Below are positions 15,501 through 43,200 of a stretch of DNA of 64,000 nucleotides, piece after piece (within the stretch, counting starts at the first letter, position 1; each line of letters starts with the position of its first letter). The notes beneath the pieces were generated by a model, which was not told the origin of the DNA, did no database searches, and saw only the letters and a list, made by a program, of their open reading frames with translations. Position numbers and translations under genes: made by a program. The DNA comes from Octopus vulgaris (Eukaryota). The DNA lies in assembly GCA_951406725.2 (NCBI GenBank), contig OX597828.1, positions 14,198,001-14,262,000 of the forward strand, written 5' to 3'.

Positions 15501-18500
15501 TATGATGATAAACCAGATGAAACTTCAAAGAATCAATCATTCCCTTGTAAAAATTAATGTGCTCTACTAAAAAGTATTCAGTAACCCTTCGTTAATATTA
15601 AATTGTTTTTCTGCACAAGCTGATATATAAGCTAACATGAATAACCATGCAAGCAATGACATAAACAATGTGCTTTGTACAGTTTCCATTAATCTTTTAC
15701 TTGTTTCAGTTATTTGACTGCGGCCATTCCTAATGCCAACCAATCCAAGAGTGTAATGGTTGCTTTTACATGCCACCAGCACAGGTGCCATTTGCGTGAC
15801 ACCAGTATCTACCACAGCTGCAATATTGCTTGGCTTGATGAGTCTTCTCAAGCATGGCATACTGTCAAGGATCTCGGTCATTGCCTCCATGAGGCCTAAC
15901 AAATGTTATTTTAATTTTGAGATTAAGAAATTAAAAAGAACAAAGAAAAAACCTGACTGGAATGATTAATATTTTAAATCATAATGCAAATATCAAGTTA
16001 AAATATTTGGGTTCAAATAGGCACAAGCAAAGCTCAAAATTATATCAAACTTCCTCTTTTAGAAGAAGATTGTACAAACACACAAGTTCTAAATATAATA
16101 TTCCATAAACTATTTCAAGACATCTCACAAATATACTACAGACAGAGTCTATACATTGTTGTTTGACATACTAGAAGTAGTAACCAAATTTGCCTCAAAT
16201 CATATGCTTCCATCTTAAAAACAGATGGATATACTGGACAATGTTGTTCAAGACCTATTAAAGAGGAGATGGTCATGGTTGGAACCTCCGTTTACAACTG
16301 AGAAGATGTGGTTATATATATATAAAACCCCTTATTCTGTCAAAGAGAACACAATGTTAGCAATATTACCTGCAATCCTTTCTCTTGAAGAGAATGAACT
16401 GAGAGTTTTTGAGCATCTCCAACACTTGGCGAAATAGCCACTCTGAAAGGTGACTCTGGGATGTGTTCATCGTTAAACTTAACAGATACCAGGTACTCTC
16501 CTGCAAATTATATAAATAAAAATGTCATAACTTGTATCTATAACAGTCAAATTCCAATTGCAACACAACCAAATTATAATTTTACAGTAAGAGATAATTA
16601 CAGAGCAAAAAGAATGAAAAATTTATAAATAAGTAGGATACTGACCAGGCTCAGTGCACACATAGTTCACACCACAAGAACCATCTTTTCTATCTTCAAA
16701 ATCTATTTCAGCTTTAGATGGCCCCTCAACAGCAATAGACAAACCACCAGCACCAGCTTCCCGAGTATAAATGTTGAATTCACCTTTAGAAATAGAGAAA
16801 CAGTTGTTGTATGAGAAGTGTATGAACAGGAGTAAAGAAAGGCTGCTGCAATAATACTGAGTTATTTATGATTGAAGCAGAGCTAAAAGATTTATGTGAA
16901 CTATTTTGGAAGTTAATATTAGATTTTAGATTTTAAGATTTTACATGTCAAGTGGGGAAAAAGAAACCAAGAATTTACAAATATGTAATATTTTGGTCTC
17001 AAAATTATGATTAAATTACTTACAAGGTGAGTGTACTTCTCCTTTCTCTAAGCCAGGACCAGCTGCATGCACTTTGTGGGCTCCGCCTCCAGTAATAGGC
17101 CCAACTGTGAATTCAAAGGGGCTGCCTAAAGACGAAAAATACAAAGAAAAATGTATATATACATAGATCTGGAAATCAAATCTTAAATTTCAAAATGAAT
17201 TAAAAAAATTTTTATTTATTTTTTTAATATCTGAGAAAAATCTAAAATGCTCAAAGAACCTTAAAATATGCTCACCTGGAATATGCATATCTTTGTGCTT
17301 TACACTAACTGTATGGACTCCCATTTCTTTGGGAACGAATTTGATACTATAGTGACAGTCATTTAAGCTAATTACATCACAAACTTCAGTTACACCTGAT
17401 GGGCTGGTTACAGAAGCAGTCATATCGAAAGGACTTGTGCCTATAATGAAACAGGAGAGATATTAATTACATATCTTTATTAAATTATAACACTGAAATT
17501 AACATTAGTAAAATGATAATTTCCTAAATTGAGCATTACATAAATATTTGTTTAAATATATTTTGTCTAAATGTTTTAGAAACAAGAATTAGACAAACTA
17601 GACAATAAATACAGACATTTCAAAGTTTTTTTTTTCTTTGTTTTTCTTACAGCAGGACAATTGCTATACTGCAGTTAAACTATGCTGAAGTTTCTAATTT
17701 TAATTTAAAATAAATACAATTAAGAGACAAAAAAGTCAATGTTGTTAACACACAAGTTTATAAACAATGATGCTTCCATTTATGGTATTGGTTGCCCAAT
17801 AACAAAGAGCAAATGATATTTAATAATGGAGCAGTATAATTTTATCAACTAAGAAAGATTAAATTCTTAAATATAAAAAAGTTCATACAATGAAATGATC
17901 TGGTTTAATTAAGATAATCTGAAATTTGTAACAGGAGGTTGCACAAATAAATAAAAAAATTCTTTGAAAGAAAAATTGCATTTTTCTGTAACTGACAAAA
18001 GATGCTAGTCAGGTGGGAAAAAAAAAACACAAATAACTGTGAAAGCACCATAAAGCTATGGCAAATCTAGGTGATAAGTTAATTCTATTTTCTGCATGGC
18101 GCTAATATAAAAATAAATAAATCAACTTCAGTTTTTTTTCTCTTTCAGCTGCTGTAGATGCGCGAAAATAACTGTGAATGAACGTGTGTGTGTGTGTGTG
18201 TGTGTGTGTGCATTATATACATACACACACACACAAGATAAAATATAAAGAATCCAAATTTTTAGTGTCCAAGTGAAAGGAGGACACTTTTATAGCAAAT
18301 TTATACAGGATGGAAGGATAGAGACAACTGTGTGAACTCAGTTTGAATGGTTGGAGGGAAAAAAATGAAGAGAAGCAGTTCATGATTATGTAAGGATTAG
18401 AAAAGGTGTTTAGTACAGAGTTTAGTGACAATGTGAACGAGTTGAGATACTGAAGGCAAAGAGAAGAAGCTGAAAGTGGTAGACAGAAAGTAAAGCGAAA

Positions 18501-21500: not shown

Positions 21501-24500
21501 ATAATAAAGATTACATGAGCTAATACAGAAATGGATTAAGATAAGCCAGGGATAAGACCAACCGAAGAACATAAATATAGACCAACTAATAGTACAATAT
21601 TAAGACAATATGAATATAGACCAGTGCTCCACAACCTTTTTTTCACTTGCAGTACACTTAAATTCTTTTCAAATTCGGTAGCACACCTGAACTAAAAATA
21701 TAAAAGTATACGGGAAAAAATATTTAGGTTACACTATGGCACACCTAGCAATGTCTCACAGCACAGTGTGCCGCAGCATACCAGTTGCAGAGCACTGATA
21801 TAGACCAACAAAATATATATACATGTACGTATACACTACAATGTTAAGACATAAAGGGACAAAGCTAGTTGCGACATGCAGACAGAATATACTTCTTGCG
21901 TTACAAAGTATAACTACATTACTTACATAGCCACATCCTGTAGAAAGCTTTTAGTAATTAGATATAGACAATCAACTAGAAATGTAATTAGACAAGATTT
22001 TGCAACCACTAATACATGAAGCATTTCCCAAACCACTATACTTCATATCTAAGAATTTAAGAATTAGTAAAAACACAGATAAAAATCAGAAAAAAAAAAT
22101 GCTATAAAAATGATTGATATAAAAGATCAGTGTCTGTGGAAATGGTAAAGTAAGAACATCAATGACTCATGTATTTCTATATTTCTTTCCCACAGGTGTT
22201 TTGTGTAAAAATATATTTCCTATATTCAGTGAGTTATTTTAAAACGCAACAGATAATAAAAGTATGAAAGATAGGTTTAAAGTAGAAGCTGCAAATGAAT
22301 TAAGTGTCCAAGATTAAACTATACTGCTGAATAAATTTTTTCTTATATTCATCAAATATTAGATTTTATAATAAATGTTTATTTAATATTTCTTTTGGTG
22401 GTAAATAACTTCCCTTTCTGAAGCGAGAATATATATATATATATATATATATAAAAAAAAAATTAAAAAAAGTAGCTAAATGGATTTTACATCTGGGAAG
22501 GTATTTTATTTCTCATGCTCTGCTAGAATGATACATTGGAGTATTTTGAAAGAATTTCTAGAATATTTATCTAAAATGTAAATACATAAAGAAAATGCAG
22601 TGTCATTGTTGTAAACAAACTAAAACAATATAAAATGTGATAGAATCAAGTTTGCTTACAAATATATTTTTGAACCTCCTTAAACTTTATTTGGAAGAAA
22701 TTTATAGCAAACATGGTTTTTAATCTATAAGAAATAGCAGATATAAGGAAAATGTGGTATAGCTGCAAAGTGTGTATGTGTGTGTGTGTGTAGTTTCAAA
22801 ATACACACATGTTAGCATGGTCACAAAGTACAAGTGTGTGAGTTTGCTGTCACAAAATATGAATGCGGTGCTCCAGCATGGCTGCAGTCAAATGATTGAA
22901 ACAAGTAAAAGAGTCACATGTGATAACAGTGTTTGTGTATATGCAGTGACAGTACTTGTATGTGTGTGCATGTGTGACAGTACATGTGTGTGTGTGTGTG
23001 ATGACAAATCCATCTTACACACACCCATGATGAAATGCTCAATCATTAAAATTGACGTAAAATTTTTAACGATTTCTTCCCGAGTTCAATCCCAATGTTA
23101 TCCGAGACAATAACATTGTCATTATATGGTTATTTTATGTTTATTATATCTTCATAAATTTATTTTCATCTCCTACTCCTAACATATAATTATAATAACT
23201 GCACTATAATTCTAAATTATAATAGAAAAGAATAGTTGGAAAATGCAGTTAAAAAAGTAAAAACAAACCTAATTATTATTAATCCAAAATAAATTTTAGA
23301 ACTGGTCAAATGTGAACATAAATACTTCACTAAAATCTTGCAAACATCAGAGTGTTTGCAAAATAAAATGTCATTTTATTTTTTATGGATAAAATGAAAC
23401 CCCTTAAGACTTAAGGATAATAAAGAATAATTATACTACTACTATTACTACTACTACTACAAGTAGTGATACAGAATGTCTTACCAACTGATTTCTTTAC
23501 ATCCTGATTGTTAGTAATGGTAATAATATTGTGTGTGTCCCATTTTACATAGGGTATATAATCTGTAACAACTTTGACAGGAGACGAATAAGACTTTACA
23601 AGAGTAATTGGTACTGTACGCATTTTGAAAGATTTTGTTTCTTTGTGGGTTTCTTATTTGTTTTTCCTTTGTTATTTGTTTTTTAAAATCACAGAAACAA
23701 AACAGTTCTTTTGGGGTGAAAAAGAAAGAACCGATATAAATATATACAGTACTTCTAACTGTCAACAAGTCACAGGCAAGGAAAATGTAATAAAAAACTA
23801 GTTTTTGTTGTTGAAGAAGCTAAACGAAACTGAAATAGATTCTCTTTCTGGAGAGAGAAGTGAAGAATGAGCAATATAAGCAGTAGCTGAAAGCTTAAAA
23901 AGAAGCTGTGCTGGCTGAGAGAAGTTACATTATTGCCCTCCAGCAAGGTGAGTAAAAATATCATTTCAGCAGCAGCAGACAAGTATCTCTACCTTACTCC
24001 CCCTCCCACCCACTCTTGGCACTGATAACAAAAATCTTAAATGCCAGATTTCACAATAGCTGGAAGTTGTCTTCAGAAATAGAGCCAAAACTCTTTTCTA
24101 TGTACTGACAACATTTTTTTGGTATGTTTTATTAACTAACAGCAACTGGACTGTTAACATGGAAAAAAAAAATCTACAAGAATGAGGAAAACTTGATTGC
24201 AATAGAAATGGCATGGAACTAATTAAATTCTTGGTATTGTGTGATCACAATTATTTTTTCTTAATAGTAAAAGTTAAAAAAAAAAAAAAAACTGAACAAA
24301 CTTAATGCACCAAGTTAGTTTGACAAAGTACTTTTTTTAAAACTAACAGCAACTGGACAAAGTTTGACAAAGTACTTTTTTTAACTAACTTTTTTAACTA
24401 ACTTGACAAAGTACCTTTTTTTAATTAACAGCAACTGGACTGTTAACATGGAAAAAAACTCTACAAGAACGAGGAAAACTTGATTGCAATAGAAATGGCA

Positions 24501-27500
24501 TGGAACTAATTAAATTCTTGGTATTACGTGATCACAATTATTTTTCTTAATAGTAAAAGTATAAAAAAAAAAAAGAACTGAACAAACTTAATGCACCAAG
24601 TTAGTTTGAAAAAGTATTTTTTTTTAAGTGACTTGCAGTTTATGAAGAGAATGTGCATGGGTTAATCTGCAGTCCAAAAGTAATGCTGTTAACTATAGTA
24701 TCAAATATGAGACTTCATGTAGGTACATTATGATGTGGAGGTGAGGATCACACAGTAGAAGACATTAGAACCATAGGGAATTTAATTCAATAAGGTGGAT
24801 TTTTGATTCTTCAAAATATGTGTATTTATATATAAAACAGAGCCAATGTACTAAACACTTAGGATCATCATAGAGTTTTTATATATCTGAAATACGATAC
24901 CAAAGAGTTTCAAAACATTTTGTTCAGTAAATCTGAATCTTGAAGTAGAGTTTCATGATTTCAGAAATGGAACAAAACTTAAAAGGAACCCAGAGACAAA
25001 GAAAGAGAGAGAAAGGGATATAGATAAATATAATTTCTGTTTAAAACACAGAAATGATCATTTTAACATTAGATAAATGGGTAAAAAGGCAATTCAGATA
25101 TATAAAACAGACAATATGAAGATCCAGAGAAAACCGTGTATTGGAGGGTAATAACTGGCTTTAAACATTTTTAAATTTAGTATCAAAAGTTACCTCTGAT
25201 AGCCAAATAATTTTCTGTAGGAAAAACAATGCACAAACATAGCTTTATTGTAAACAGAAAAAAAAAATACATACATACACACATGGAAATACATAACGAG
25301 GAAGAATGGAAACTATCTGAAGTGAAATAACTTTTAAAGAACTTCCAGGGGTGAAAAAATTGTACAAATAACTATTTATCATGAAAAGATGGAGAATAAA
25401 AAAAGTGTAAGGTTTATGTTTGGATGTTCAAAGAACAATAATTTACTGAAATAAATCTTCAGACTTAACATTTTTTTTTTCTTCTTCCTTTCCTATTCTA
25501 TCATTACTAAATATTATTCAAATAAGCCTGCTGGCTATTTGTGACATCAGGACCTGTAAAGATACTGAAAGGCATTCCAGTGATGGCCATCCTTATCTTT
25601 GTAGAAGCATCTAAGATATTCTTTTCTATGCAGCTGGAGATATCACTCGAAAGACTTTTGTAGGATTCTTTTTCTTCTTGAAGGTTTGGGAAAGAATTGA
25701 TTCGATACATTACAAGGAAACTTTCCTTTCATACCATTTGCTTCAGCTTAATCCAGTTTCCTGGCCACCTCTAATTAAGGTGTCCAATATACGAAAAAAC
25801 AGATGAGGCTTAAGTAGTAAGTTCACTTGACTAATAGTAAAGTTCAACTCCATTGCTTAATCCAGATATCATTCAATCTTCTATATAGACTACATGATAA
25901 ACAATGTTATTGGCTGGAGCTGTCATTCAAAAGATTGTTCATAGTGCAAGAGTAATCAGATTGTTTACATTGCAAAAGTAAATGTAATGAAAGTGAGTTC
26001 AATTCCACCTTAAGCTCAAACATACTTAAAGACAACAGAACATCGAGAAGATGAAATTGCTTAAAACAGTAGAAAGAAAGAAAAAAAGATGCTAAGAATC
26101 TATAAGACTTATTTCAGTATTAGTAACACATTAAAAAGGTGTAATATAATTAAGAAATTTTCTATCTAATTTTTCACTTGATAAAAATTTTTAGATTTAA
26201 AAGAGTACTTGATGCTAAAGAGAGTATTACAATTACTGAAGCTGACATTTCACATTTTATAAAGTTTCATGTCTGAAGATCAGAGACATGAAACTAAATG
26301 TGAAGTGTCAAAAGTATTCGTATGAAGCTATTACAGAAGAAAACATAATGGAGCAGGGGTGTGGGGAATCAAGGCACGGTTGGTTTCGCTTTTTAACACA
26401 AAGAATTATAATACAGACACATAGGGATTAGCTAAATCCATACTACTGAGTTGTTTTTTTATATATATTTTTATGAACATCTTTCAAGAACACATGAACA
26501 CACTAGATTATAAATCAGCAAAACATGAAAAGAATAAGTTACCTGGAATTTTTAAACTGAGTTCACATTGGCTTCCTATGTGTGTGATATCAGCAGCTTC
26601 CCGATGTCTAGTAATACGTTCAGTAATACGAGAGGATGGTTCACCACCAATTTTCACACTGAATGGACTGCCTGTTAACAGAACAAGTGAACAACAGGGT
26701 TTTAACAATGAACACAAAGTAATATTAGAACACTAATTTAAAATACTAATTGATAATATGGCACAGATGTGATAGTGTTTGAGAAATTTGCTTTCCAACC
26801 ACGTAGTTTTGGGTTCAGTCCCACTGCATGGCCCCTTGGGCAAGTATCTTCTACTATAGCCCCAAGCCAGCTAGAAGCTTCTTAATGAATTTTGTAGATG
26901 GAGACTCTAAAAAGCCCATTGTGCATGTATGTGCATATTTTTGCATCTCCTACACTTGACGTCATGTGATTGTTGCAAATAAATGTTCATTTCCAATATT
27001 TTATGAAAACATGTTTAGTCAAGAGGAAATATCACTGTTTAGAAACCAGTGACAAATGGCAACAGGAAGGGTGTCCAATCATAGAAAGTCTGCTTCAATA
27101 AATTCCACCTGAAGCATGCAAACATGGAAACTAAGAAACGATATAGATATTTTGTGAGGACTTAATTTTATGTGGTACAAAGCAACTTCACTAGTGTTGG
27201 TGCCATCACAAAATGCATCGCCATAAACTATGTGAAGCAGTTGACTAATGACAAAATAAGTGTTAAGACACTTATTTTGAGAAAATGACAACTCTTAGTG
27301 CAGGTACCATAAAAAAATGCATCTGGTACTCTTAAGAGAGCAGTCGGGGATAGAAAGGCTGTCCAAATTAATTAAATTTCCATCTTCTTACTGCCAATAT
27401 TCTGGTGGTTCTTGACTTTATCAATCACCTCAAAAGGACCAAAAGGCAACTCTGATATAATGGATATAACAAAACGCCATAAGGTATTTTTTGATGCTAT

Positions 27501-40267: not shown

Positions 40268-43200
40268 AGTGGATTTAGTGAACTAATTAACTAATTTAAT
40301 AATTATAATTACTAGTATTACCTGCTGTGCTTGAGGAGACCTATTGAGTCAAGTACATCAACATCAAAATAAATATCAAATGGAAATTGTAGTTTGTGCC
40401 GGTGGCACGTAAAAAGCACCATCCGAACGTGACCGATGCCAGCGCTGCCTTGACTGGCTTCTGTGCCGGTGGCACGTAAAAAGCACCAACCAATTGTGGC
40501 CACTGCCAGTTTCCCCTGGCACCTGTGCCGGTGGTTGGCGTTAGGAAGGGCATCCAGCAGTAGAAACACTGCCGGATCAGACTGGAGCCTGGTACAGCCT
40601 CTTGGCTTCCCAGACCCCGGTCGAACCATCCAACCCGTGCTAGCATGGAAAATGGACATTAAACGATGATGACTAGTATAAATACAATGTAGAGGAGCAT
40701 GGCTTAGTAGTTAGGGTGTAAGACTGGTTTTGATTCCTGGACCAGGTGATGTGTTGTGTTCTTGAGCAAAACTTCATTTTATGCTGTTCCAGCCTACTCA
40801 TCTGGTAAACATAAGTAATCCTACAATGGACTGGAATCCCATCCAGGGAGGAATATATACACCAGAGGAACTGGAAAACCAACCCTATGCTCCTTATGAA
40901 GTAGTGTGGACTAACCAGTATAAATACAAGACCAAACAATTTTAGAGAGAGAGAGAGATGTAGTGGCTTTAACAGACCTCATAATTAACATAGGACATAA
41001 TATATTTAATATAGACTAGCAGTATCGCCCGGCGTTGCTCAGGTTTGTAAGGGAAATAACTATAAAGCATTTTTAGAGAGTTATAGCCAAAAAATAGCAA
41101 AAAAATGGAAAAAAAATTATGGTAAATTTTTTTTTTAAAAAGGTGGAGTTGCGTCCACAAACTGCCGTTTATATAGAGAGAGATACCAGGCAATACATTA
41201 AATGTGCCATCACGATTGTCATGGATGATCGGTTTAACGAACGTGCCGTCTGGTCTCTATTTAAAATAAAGTAAACTCGTTAAATGCACATGGTCATGCT
41301 TTTATTTATTTTTTAAAGATAGTGGTGTTGTGAGATGTAATGGATAATAAATTTTTTTAATCAGAAATTTGCAACACACTAATTTCTTAATAAAAAAAAA
41401 AAATTACTTTAAATTTAAAAAAAAAAGGTGATTATTGGAATGAAAATTTGAAACCCCTGTGAAAGTAACTAACCAATAAATTTTGTTAGAAGAAGCTGTA
41501 TACTCACTTGTAATTTTACATTTGCTGGCATCACCTGTGGGTTTAGAACAAGCCTTGATGGGGCTGGTTGGAATCTCAACGCCACCGAATTTGATTTTGA
41601 TTGTGTAGACACCAAGATCTTCAGGAGTGTAAGTAACATTAAATGTGCCATCACGATTGTCATGGATGATCGGTTTAACGAACGTGCCGTCTGGTCTCTA
41701 TTTAAAATAAAGTAAACTCGTTAAGTATCACAAATTGTGTGTGTGCATGTGTTATGTAAATGAGAAATGTTTTATTTATTTTTATTTTAAGAATTAGTAT
41801 TTATTTCATTTTGTATAAACAAAGAAATTTGATAAATTTAAATTATTGTATTATTGGAATGAAAATTTGAAACCCCTGTGAAAGTAACTCCAATACAATA
41901 ATAGCATAAATGTTGGCTGGTTGATTGATTTCTCCAGCTACACTTTACATCATGTAGAGGATGGGGAGAGGATAAAAGACAGATACAGAGAGTTAAGAGA
42001 TGTGGGATGAGTGCAAATACTAAGCTTGGTGGCAGATAATGAGTGAAGGAATGTTTTACACACAATGAAAGGAAGAAAAGGAGAGGATATAAATGATAGA
42101 AATAATGGGAGGTGTTATGTAAATGAGAAATGTTTTATTTATTTTTATTTTAAGAATTAGTATTTATTTCATTTTGTATAAACAAAGAAATTTGATAAAT
42201 TTAAATTATTGTATGTATGTTATATTTCCTGAAATTATCCCTAGTGGAAAAATACTTACAAAATTACCTGTCACGTGACTAATAACACTAATTAAAATAT
42301 ATTTACCTGAATTGACACTTCTAAGTCTGCAATTCCTGCCTCAGTGGTATCGATGCAGAATGACACAGGAAGACTAGCAGGGACATCATTCACCCCAGGA
42401 CCATAAACACGAACTTTAGTTGGATCAAAACCTGGTTTAACAGGCATATTAAATGGACTGGAAAATAACAACAACAATTGAAAGTGGAAATAGTGAAAAC
42501 ATACATTTGTTTTATGGAGATTAATCTTAATCATAAGCACAAAAAAAAAAGGCGATAATTATTGATTTTGAATATGGGCAAAAGGTCATTTTTTAAAAAA
42601 ATTTTTAACAGGGGCATAGTCAGTTATAATTGACTTGGTACTTTCCTTAATGTGAGGATGATAATGACAATGGTTAGGAGCTGGATTTGCAGTTATAAGG
42701 CTGTAGGTTCAATTCCAGGACTGGGCGGTACTTTGGGTTCATGAGCAGGGCATTTCATGTTACTCCAGCCCATGGCTGCATCATTATCATTCTCCAGTGT
42801 TTTCTTAGGAATGGTTTCTATGGCTAAATGCCATCCCTAACACCAACAAAGTTACTGGGTGCTATTTTCAATGATACCAGCACTACTGAGGTCTCCCTGC
42901 AGCTTGCGGGACTACAAGCTTCAAGAGAGGTGACTGTGTAATTAGCCTTGAAAACACCTTCTTCAATAGGATGAGAATGACAGGGTGGACCTGGAAAGAA
43001 GAATATTTAATAAACTATATGTTTATTGTTACTAATTAGTAATAAAAGAAATTGCTCTTTTACACACACGTACACAACTTTACAATCACATTTCATGGAC
43101 CTTCTTCAGGTACTGTGTAATTAGCCTTGAAAACACCTTCTTCAATAGGATGAACATCAGCTGGCCTCTTACCTAGATATAGAGAATTTACACTTTGATA

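Follow-up and report, generated by a model that had tools for sequence, protein, structure and literature searches.

The window analyzed here, a stretch of 64,000 nucleotides of Octopus vulgaris DNA, contains the 3' part of a filamin gene, which is encoded on the minus strand in about 40 exons running from 63.4 kb to a stop near 2.06 kb. The filamin-A of Octopus sinensis matched the exons of the window nearly letter for letter, and the region for Ig19-21 matched the FLNA Ig19-21 structure 2J3S by sequence (E 1.7e-39), 2J3S being also the top Foldseek hit. Within this region, an exon of 129 nt (26543..26671, minus strand), which was spliced in all 8 runs examined, encodes the end of Ig19, the auto-inhibitory first strand of Ig20 (ERITRHRE) and strand B (CELSLKIP). 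It corresponds to FLNA/FLNB exon 40, the exon that var-1 leaves out and whose length in FLNB is 123 bp (PMC2199218). The next stretch of Ig20, strands C to G, is encoded by an exon at 17276..17440 (minus strand), identified from the sequence and from contig joints; its acceptor is shared by the direct joint from the 129-nt exon, the joint from the microexon and that from the probable alternative first exon, both exons being described below.

Optional exons in the intron between strands B and C

In the 9,102-nt intron between these exons lies a cassette microexon of 21 nt (25194..25214, minus strand, phase 1-1), supported by contig joints, protein models and loop prediction, which would put the residues ENYLAIR into the B-C loop of Ig20. 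The minus-strand letters at this position read ...tttgtgcattgtttttcctacag / AAAATTATTTGGCTATCAGAG / gtaact, the middle part being positions 25214-25194. The acceptor region (25215..25242, minus strand) has a pyrimidine tract, a TGC 19 nt before the exon and an AG-free zone of 26 nt, and the donor GTAACT (25188..25193, minus strand), which follows GAG, was recognized from the sequence and from the joint 17439/25193. The acceptor, the length and position of the exon, the GAG/GTAACT donor and the 1-1 phase all agree with a preliminary description of this DNA. The exon falls within the class of alternatively spliced microexons (3-27 nt, GT-AG, frame-preserving), and it was the sole 3-30-nt candidate in the intron that passed our filter; the reverse strand gave 0. 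At least one exon-like candidate also arose in 12% of 200 local shuffles (mean 0.13), so that the sequence alone did not decide the matter, which was settled by RNA-derived contigs.

We examined 8 of 24 candidate runs, none of which is labelled as RNA or by tissue; they were accepted because their contigs join at GT-AG sites. Such contigs show the dominant path only, and at the microexon joints the shorter flank spans 22 letters. Inclusion was observed as the joints 26543/25214 and 25193/17439, with GT-AG ends, in contigs of X4, X11 and X12 (3/8 runs, from 2 studies, P3 and P6), and skipping as the direct joint 26542/17439 in contigs of the 5 others (X1, X3, X6, X8 and X9). X4, which includes the exon, and X6, which skips it, have a common study and species label, and this contrast suggests regulation between samples, with variation between individuals as a further possibility, and not a species difference. 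We are nearly certain that the 21-nt exon is real, as the preliminary description had held in calling it a frame-preserving microexon. That description had regarded a lack of inclusion reads, combined with loss of the splice sites in close relatives, as what would speak against the exon; the contigs include it, and cephalopod relatives keep it (see below).

A second optional exon lies in the same intron (23485..23929, minus strand, the 5' end being approximate) and was identified from the joint 17439/23484, from its translation and from homology to P0189. The joint was present in X12, X4 and X9, that is, in microexon-including and microexon-skipping runs alike, and the contigs were colinear with the genome up to 23873-23929. 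From an ATG at 23623 the exon reads on for 46 codons and one further nucleotide to the donor GTAAGA at 23484, keeping the frame of GTSPF, and an in-frame stop lies 11 codons upstream of this ATG. The N-terminus of P0189 is homologous to the exon, with a score of 79.5 against 7.7 +/- 7.3 for shuffles, 0/2000 of which reached it. We regard 23485..23929 as probably a conserved alternative first exon. The O. bimaculoides model P0181 joins it internally, which would make it an internal exon; a first exon fits the contigs better.

Initiation at this exon would produce a short filamin of ~520 aa (Ig20 strands C-G to Ig24), without the actin-binding domain and the auto-inhibitory strand, and by analogy with FLNA var-1 the short protein is predicted to be open: in var-1, skipping of exon 40 takes away the auto-inhibitory strand, and integrin binding rises (PMC1948075). 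The octopus forms resemble FLNA/FLNB var-1 and FLNB 40B/C in that the same exon pair is spliced alternatively, and the octopus first exon would also remove the auto-inhibitory strand. However, var-1 is a full-length protein without the upstream exon, and FLNB 40B/C truncates the protein, whereas the octopus forms are an in-frame insert of 7 aa and a probable protein of ~520 aa.

Three further observations concern this intron. The contig depth of X11 at the 17439 branch (1327 downstream, 793 upstream) had suggested ~60% inclusion of the microexon, an estimate that we dropped because the exon at 23484 explains the branch; a depth step at 17439 was present also in the skipping run X9 (448 vs 209), and an inclusion level is therefore not claimed. 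Two sea-slug models (P0015 and P0016) have an N-terminus of their own joined at the acceptor of exon 17276..17440. By eye, we also noted a direct repeat of ~170 nt (~24560-24440 and 24290-24140, minus strand) just upstream of the alternative first exon.

The Ig20 insert in cephalopods and other animals

In the FLNA structure 2J3S, the ligand groove of Ig21 is covered by the first strand of Ig20, and integrin binding rises when this strand is deleted (PMC1948075). An alignment-based AlphaFold model of P0179, built from 54 sequences (mean pLDDT 77.6), placed residues 594-600, the insert, in a coil between strands 586-591 and 607-612. These probably correspond to strands B and C, and ENYLAIR is thus predicted in the Ig20 B-C loop. 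Confidence was low (pLDDT below 50) for residues 598-600 as well as for the first strand (562-583; ERITRHRE from 568), and the closed Ig20-Ig21 pair was not reproduced (rmsd 13.4 A to 2J3S), so that the model says nothing on gating. A single-sequence model (mean pLDDT 44.9) was set aside. The preliminary description had proposed remodelling of the mechanosensor loop; its loop insert in Ig20 stands as a prediction, but the microexon would lengthen a surface loop ~20 residues after the auto-inhibitory strand, beside the mechanosensing element and not in it.

ENYLAIR is already present, as annotation only, in the automatic gene models XP_036366036.1 (O. sinensis filamin-A X1), CAI9733697.1 (O. 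vulgaris) and GAB1605000.1 (Argonauta hians); in our search set the proteins with ENYLAIR are P0178, P0179 and P0180. Isoform X2 of O. sinensis skips the microexon, and P0178 and P0062 are a pair of isoforms with and without it. Argonauta hians keeps 7/7 ENYLAIR residues at 92% overall identity, and ENYLAVR (6/7 residues) occurs in the transcript-type filamins P0061 and P0191 (85% identical overall) and in the fragment P0192 (89%), a cluster which probably represents a more distant cephalopod. A mate of this cluster, P0193, skips the exon, as do 4/4 anchored proteins of the P0059 cluster.

Beyond automatic annotation, we found no description of the mollusc exons. The literature searched, in which few subscription papers were covered, gave none of mollusc Ig20 inserts or their parallel with FLNC, and none of the regulation, conservation or FLNC parallel of the ENYLAIR gene models; no paper was found that brings together filamin, octopus and microexon. 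The accessible part of PMC5963113 has nothing on filamin isoforms, and the word 'filamin' is absent from the main text of 10.64898/2026.09.05.749416, the supplement of which may list the exon.

Other small exons of this gene were noted on the minus strand of the window. A second small optional exon, of 27 nt (AQKTLPSRV, 13878-13852), occurs in X1 of O. sinensis, whereas X2 and Argonauta lack it; it is kept as AEKTMPSNI or AEKTLPSSI in the distant cluster, and its inclusion is independent of that of the 21-nt exon. Two small exons lie in a hinge-like region (~35308-35287 and 36012-35964), the shorter of which (VLCPQPV) is missing from the Argonauta model. There is also a partial tandem exon duplicate (41256-41194 and 41697-41509), with an identical acceptor and a copy that diverges after ~21 codons, and a short match to residues 1287-1300 of P0178 at ~42973-42932, beside the exon at 43172, which may represent an exon duplicate or one of a mutually exclusive pair.

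For comparison across animals, inserts were scored between the anchors LKIP and GTSPF in a protein set that is enriched for isoforms sought on purpose. Of 641 proteins, 387 had both anchors, 108 of them with an insert of at least 5 residues and 279 without, and 32 more had the left anchor only. Among the 120 proteins listed in one homologue search, 21 carry an insert between the anchors; the first search, of 57 proteins, gave no ENYLAIR-type insert and missed the full-length isoforms. Inserts like ENYLAIR in mollusc filamins, for which the preliminary description had suggested looking, were thus found in cephalopods, and bivalves have longer ones: inserts of 10-23 aa, from exons of 30-69 nt, occupy the octopus position in oysters, mussels, scallops, Sinanodonta, Dreissena, Mactra, Mercenaria, Ruditapes and Mya. 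Most of these species have a skip isoform as well (oysters, Mytilus, Mizuhopecten, Sinanodonta, Dreissena, Mercenaria and Mya). We infer that the cephalopod and bivalve inserts have one mollusc origin. The insert was present in 0/46 named gastropod proteins, counted by eye, and a shared mollusc origin therefore needs loss or non-annotation in gastropods.

Outside the molluscs, no insert was found in nemertean isoforms, in a few annelid-type proteins, in FLNA, or in the single proteins (one isoform per animal) of amphioxus, a crinoid and Ciona. The named arthropod proteins were without it, and one further arthropod model was artefact-like. Filamins of bdelloid rotifers (P0130, P0163, P0292, P0293, P0298 and P0307) carry low-complexity inserts of 134-168 aa at the same position with a different start, and a second rotifer filamin paralogue has none. 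Four inserts, with heads GERG, AVRC, GTLR and GGSR, appeared to be gene-model artefacts from retained introns and were used only as a control.

A site that tolerates loop inserts of such different lengths, in an intron where exon-like signals arise in the above fraction of shuffles, could hold a microexon without function, one that arises from splicing noise or varies between individuals and does no harm because the loop is permissive. We consider this very improbable: in 3 runs, from 2 studies, the dominant contig path includes the microexon, and the reading is already largely refuted by conservation, since the length and 6-7 of the 7 residues are kept out to proteins that are 85% identical overall.

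Relation to the vertebrate FLNC insert

Database proteins of vertebrate FLNC read LKIP-GNWFQMV, as the preliminary description had stated, and the octopus and FLNC inserts, both of which follow LKIP, are therefore at the same protein position. PMC7216277 presents the insert as a feature of FLNC, the vertebrate muscle isoform, and of no other filamin; according to the paper, the insert binds myotilin and governs targeting to the Z-disc, while what it does to the Ig20-21 force sensor is not known. The tryptophan at insert position 3, W2164, is the site of a cardiomyopathy variant that shifts Ig20 melting by 7 degrees (10.1101/2023.08.05.552086). The octopus insert resembles the FLNC insert (residues 2162-2243) in its place right after LKIP (I2160 precedes), in the aromatic residue at position 3 (W2164 in FLNC, Y in octopus) and in the existence of insert-free models: some FLNC models are without the insert, and one killifish has both forms (P0639 and P0490). 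It differs in that the FLNC insert is ~82 aa long, of low complexity, with a myotilin partner and phosphorylation sites, whereas the octopus insert has 7 aa. From the skip-form models and the FLNB exon map of PMC2199218, the mollusc insert may lie in the same gene intron as the FLNC insert.

Beyond the head, ENYLAIR and the FLNC insert have no alignable sequence, and only the pattern at positions 3-4 agrees. This pattern, x-x-[WFY]-[FL], is common to octopus ENYL, FLNC GNWF and 8/8 distinct bivalve heads (VAFF, VSFF, VQYF, VSFL, VAFL, ASFL, ASFF and ASYL), and it was found by chance in 38 of 1152 random acceptor-like starts in the window (0.033) and in 0/4 of the artefact-like inserts; it was selected post hoc, and the sequences that share it may amount to two independent lineages. 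The pattern thus hints at a shared constraint and is not proof of descent. The rotifer inserts end in a conserved VPYFHGFKFQ, of which VPYFHGF would fit the pattern if it were an exon of its own; these were left out of the count.

The preliminary description had left the choice between convergence and distant homology with the FLNC insert. The same position holds for either, and homology rests on that position and on the two-residue pattern. We consider parallel gain in molluscs and vertebrates likely, on account of the gaps in the distribution and of the reported frequency of recurrent exon gain; 10.64898/2026.09.05.749416 describes tissue-specific exons as commonly gained more than once by the same genes. 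It is correspondingly unlikely that the mollusc exon and the FLNC insert derive from one optional exon of the bilaterian ancestor, which would have stayed short in molluscs, been extended in vertebrates and been lost in arthropods and gastropods. Such a common origin would account for the same protein position with phase-1-compatible first residues, for the shared head at its chance rate of 0.033, and for the killifish models with and without the insert. It would also account for the sturgeon model P0486, flagged by its source as unverified, which has flanks that are not FLNC-like and a head, VTWF, close to the bivalve heads. Yet only two residues agree, in a pattern picked after looking; amphioxus, the crinoid and Ciona (one protein each), the nemertean isoforms and the named arthropod proteins are without the insert; and the commonness of recurrent exon gain, with a tolerant loop at an old intron, favors parallel gain. 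Common origin is compatible with either of the tissue readings discussed below. As a separate observation, the insert head of P0486 (VTWFQL) is FLNC-like, and the vertebrate insert may predate the filamin gene duplications.

Possible regulation and function

The UGC near the 3' splice site, taken in the preliminary description as a mark of neural microexons dependent on SRRM3/4 (eMIC), is present as the TGC at -19. A TGC was uncommon at the other acceptors of the gene (3/37 within 22 nt and 4/37 within 30 nt, the positions being picked by script), and UGC occurs in 74-79% of SRRM3/4 microexons (10.1101/2024.09.17.613571). The genome also encodes an eMIC domain: a profile search gave PF15230 above cut-off on contig C25, in an Srrm234-like gene in which the domain is split over two exons ~24 kb apart (L002 1491-1637 and L007 from ~4781, G000:C25), the second of which reads SARKRPVPYHRP. 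In length, frame preservation, UGC near the acceptor, switch-like use between samples and presence of the regulator domain in the genome, the octopus exon therefore resembles SRRM3/4 microexons, and short exons are the predominant class in the conserved neural splicing of bilaterians (10.64898/2026.09.05.749416). By this evidence the exon could be a neural microexon, switched on by the Srrm234 eMIC domain, that gives neurons a changed Ig20 loop for a purpose unrelated to the muscle FLNC insert.

Other features argue against neural use. The eMIC-dependent microexons have a long AG-exclusion zone and a UCUC-rich tract (PMC8797185), whereas the AG-free zone here, at 26 nt against a median of 43 for the 37 other acceptors (10/37 as short), is not a long one, and there is no CTCT or TCTT within 90 nt upstream, the nearest being at -91. 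Also, the bivalve counterparts are longer (30-69 nt), and in vertebrates this position is occupied by exons of muscle or heart, namely the FLNC insert (PMC7216277) and the heart-specific FLNB exon 40B/C, which sits between exons 40 and 41 (PMC2199218). Consensus motifs for other regulators (TGCATG, GCATG and ACTAAY) were absent within 300 nt on either side; we draw no conclusion from a UG/UA-rich run at -79 to -57 and an ACTAA at +13. Weighing these points by analogy, we hold muscle-type tissue to be a plausible, tentative assignment for the microexon, and neural use under eMIC control to be a real possibility on the doubtful side.

With muscle-type use as the preferred reading, we propose that ENYLAIR, in its predicted place in the Ig20 B-C loop, is likely a small version of the FLNC insert. 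It would form a surface patch led by Tyr-Leu, likely tissue-regulated, that adds or changes a docking site for partners; alternatively, it may tune the opening of the Ig20-Ig21 mechanosensor. The tissue, from the analogy with FLNC, is probably contractile. Against an FLNC-like function we counted that seven residues are far too few for the known FLNC partner and phosphorylation sites, and the full functional reading, with an FLNC-like patch in muscle-type tissue, is one that we put forward tentatively, as conceivable by analogy and somewhat short of probable.

A further-reaching reading would make the FLNC insert the extended descendant of an optional exon for the Ig20 B-C loop in the bilaterian ancestor and the octopus 7-mer a minimal muscle module, with the intron setting three states of the force sensor. 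We consider this improbable; if it were true, the aromatic head of the supposedly unique FLNC insert (W2164) would survive in cephalopods and bivalves. Molluscs provide a natural length series at the position of the FLNC insert (0, 7 and 10-23 residues), with an aromatic head that matches W2164. Their short, foldable inserts make the effect of the B-C loop on domain pairing and partner choice testable, and they also bear on whether the FLNC insert is old or recurrent.
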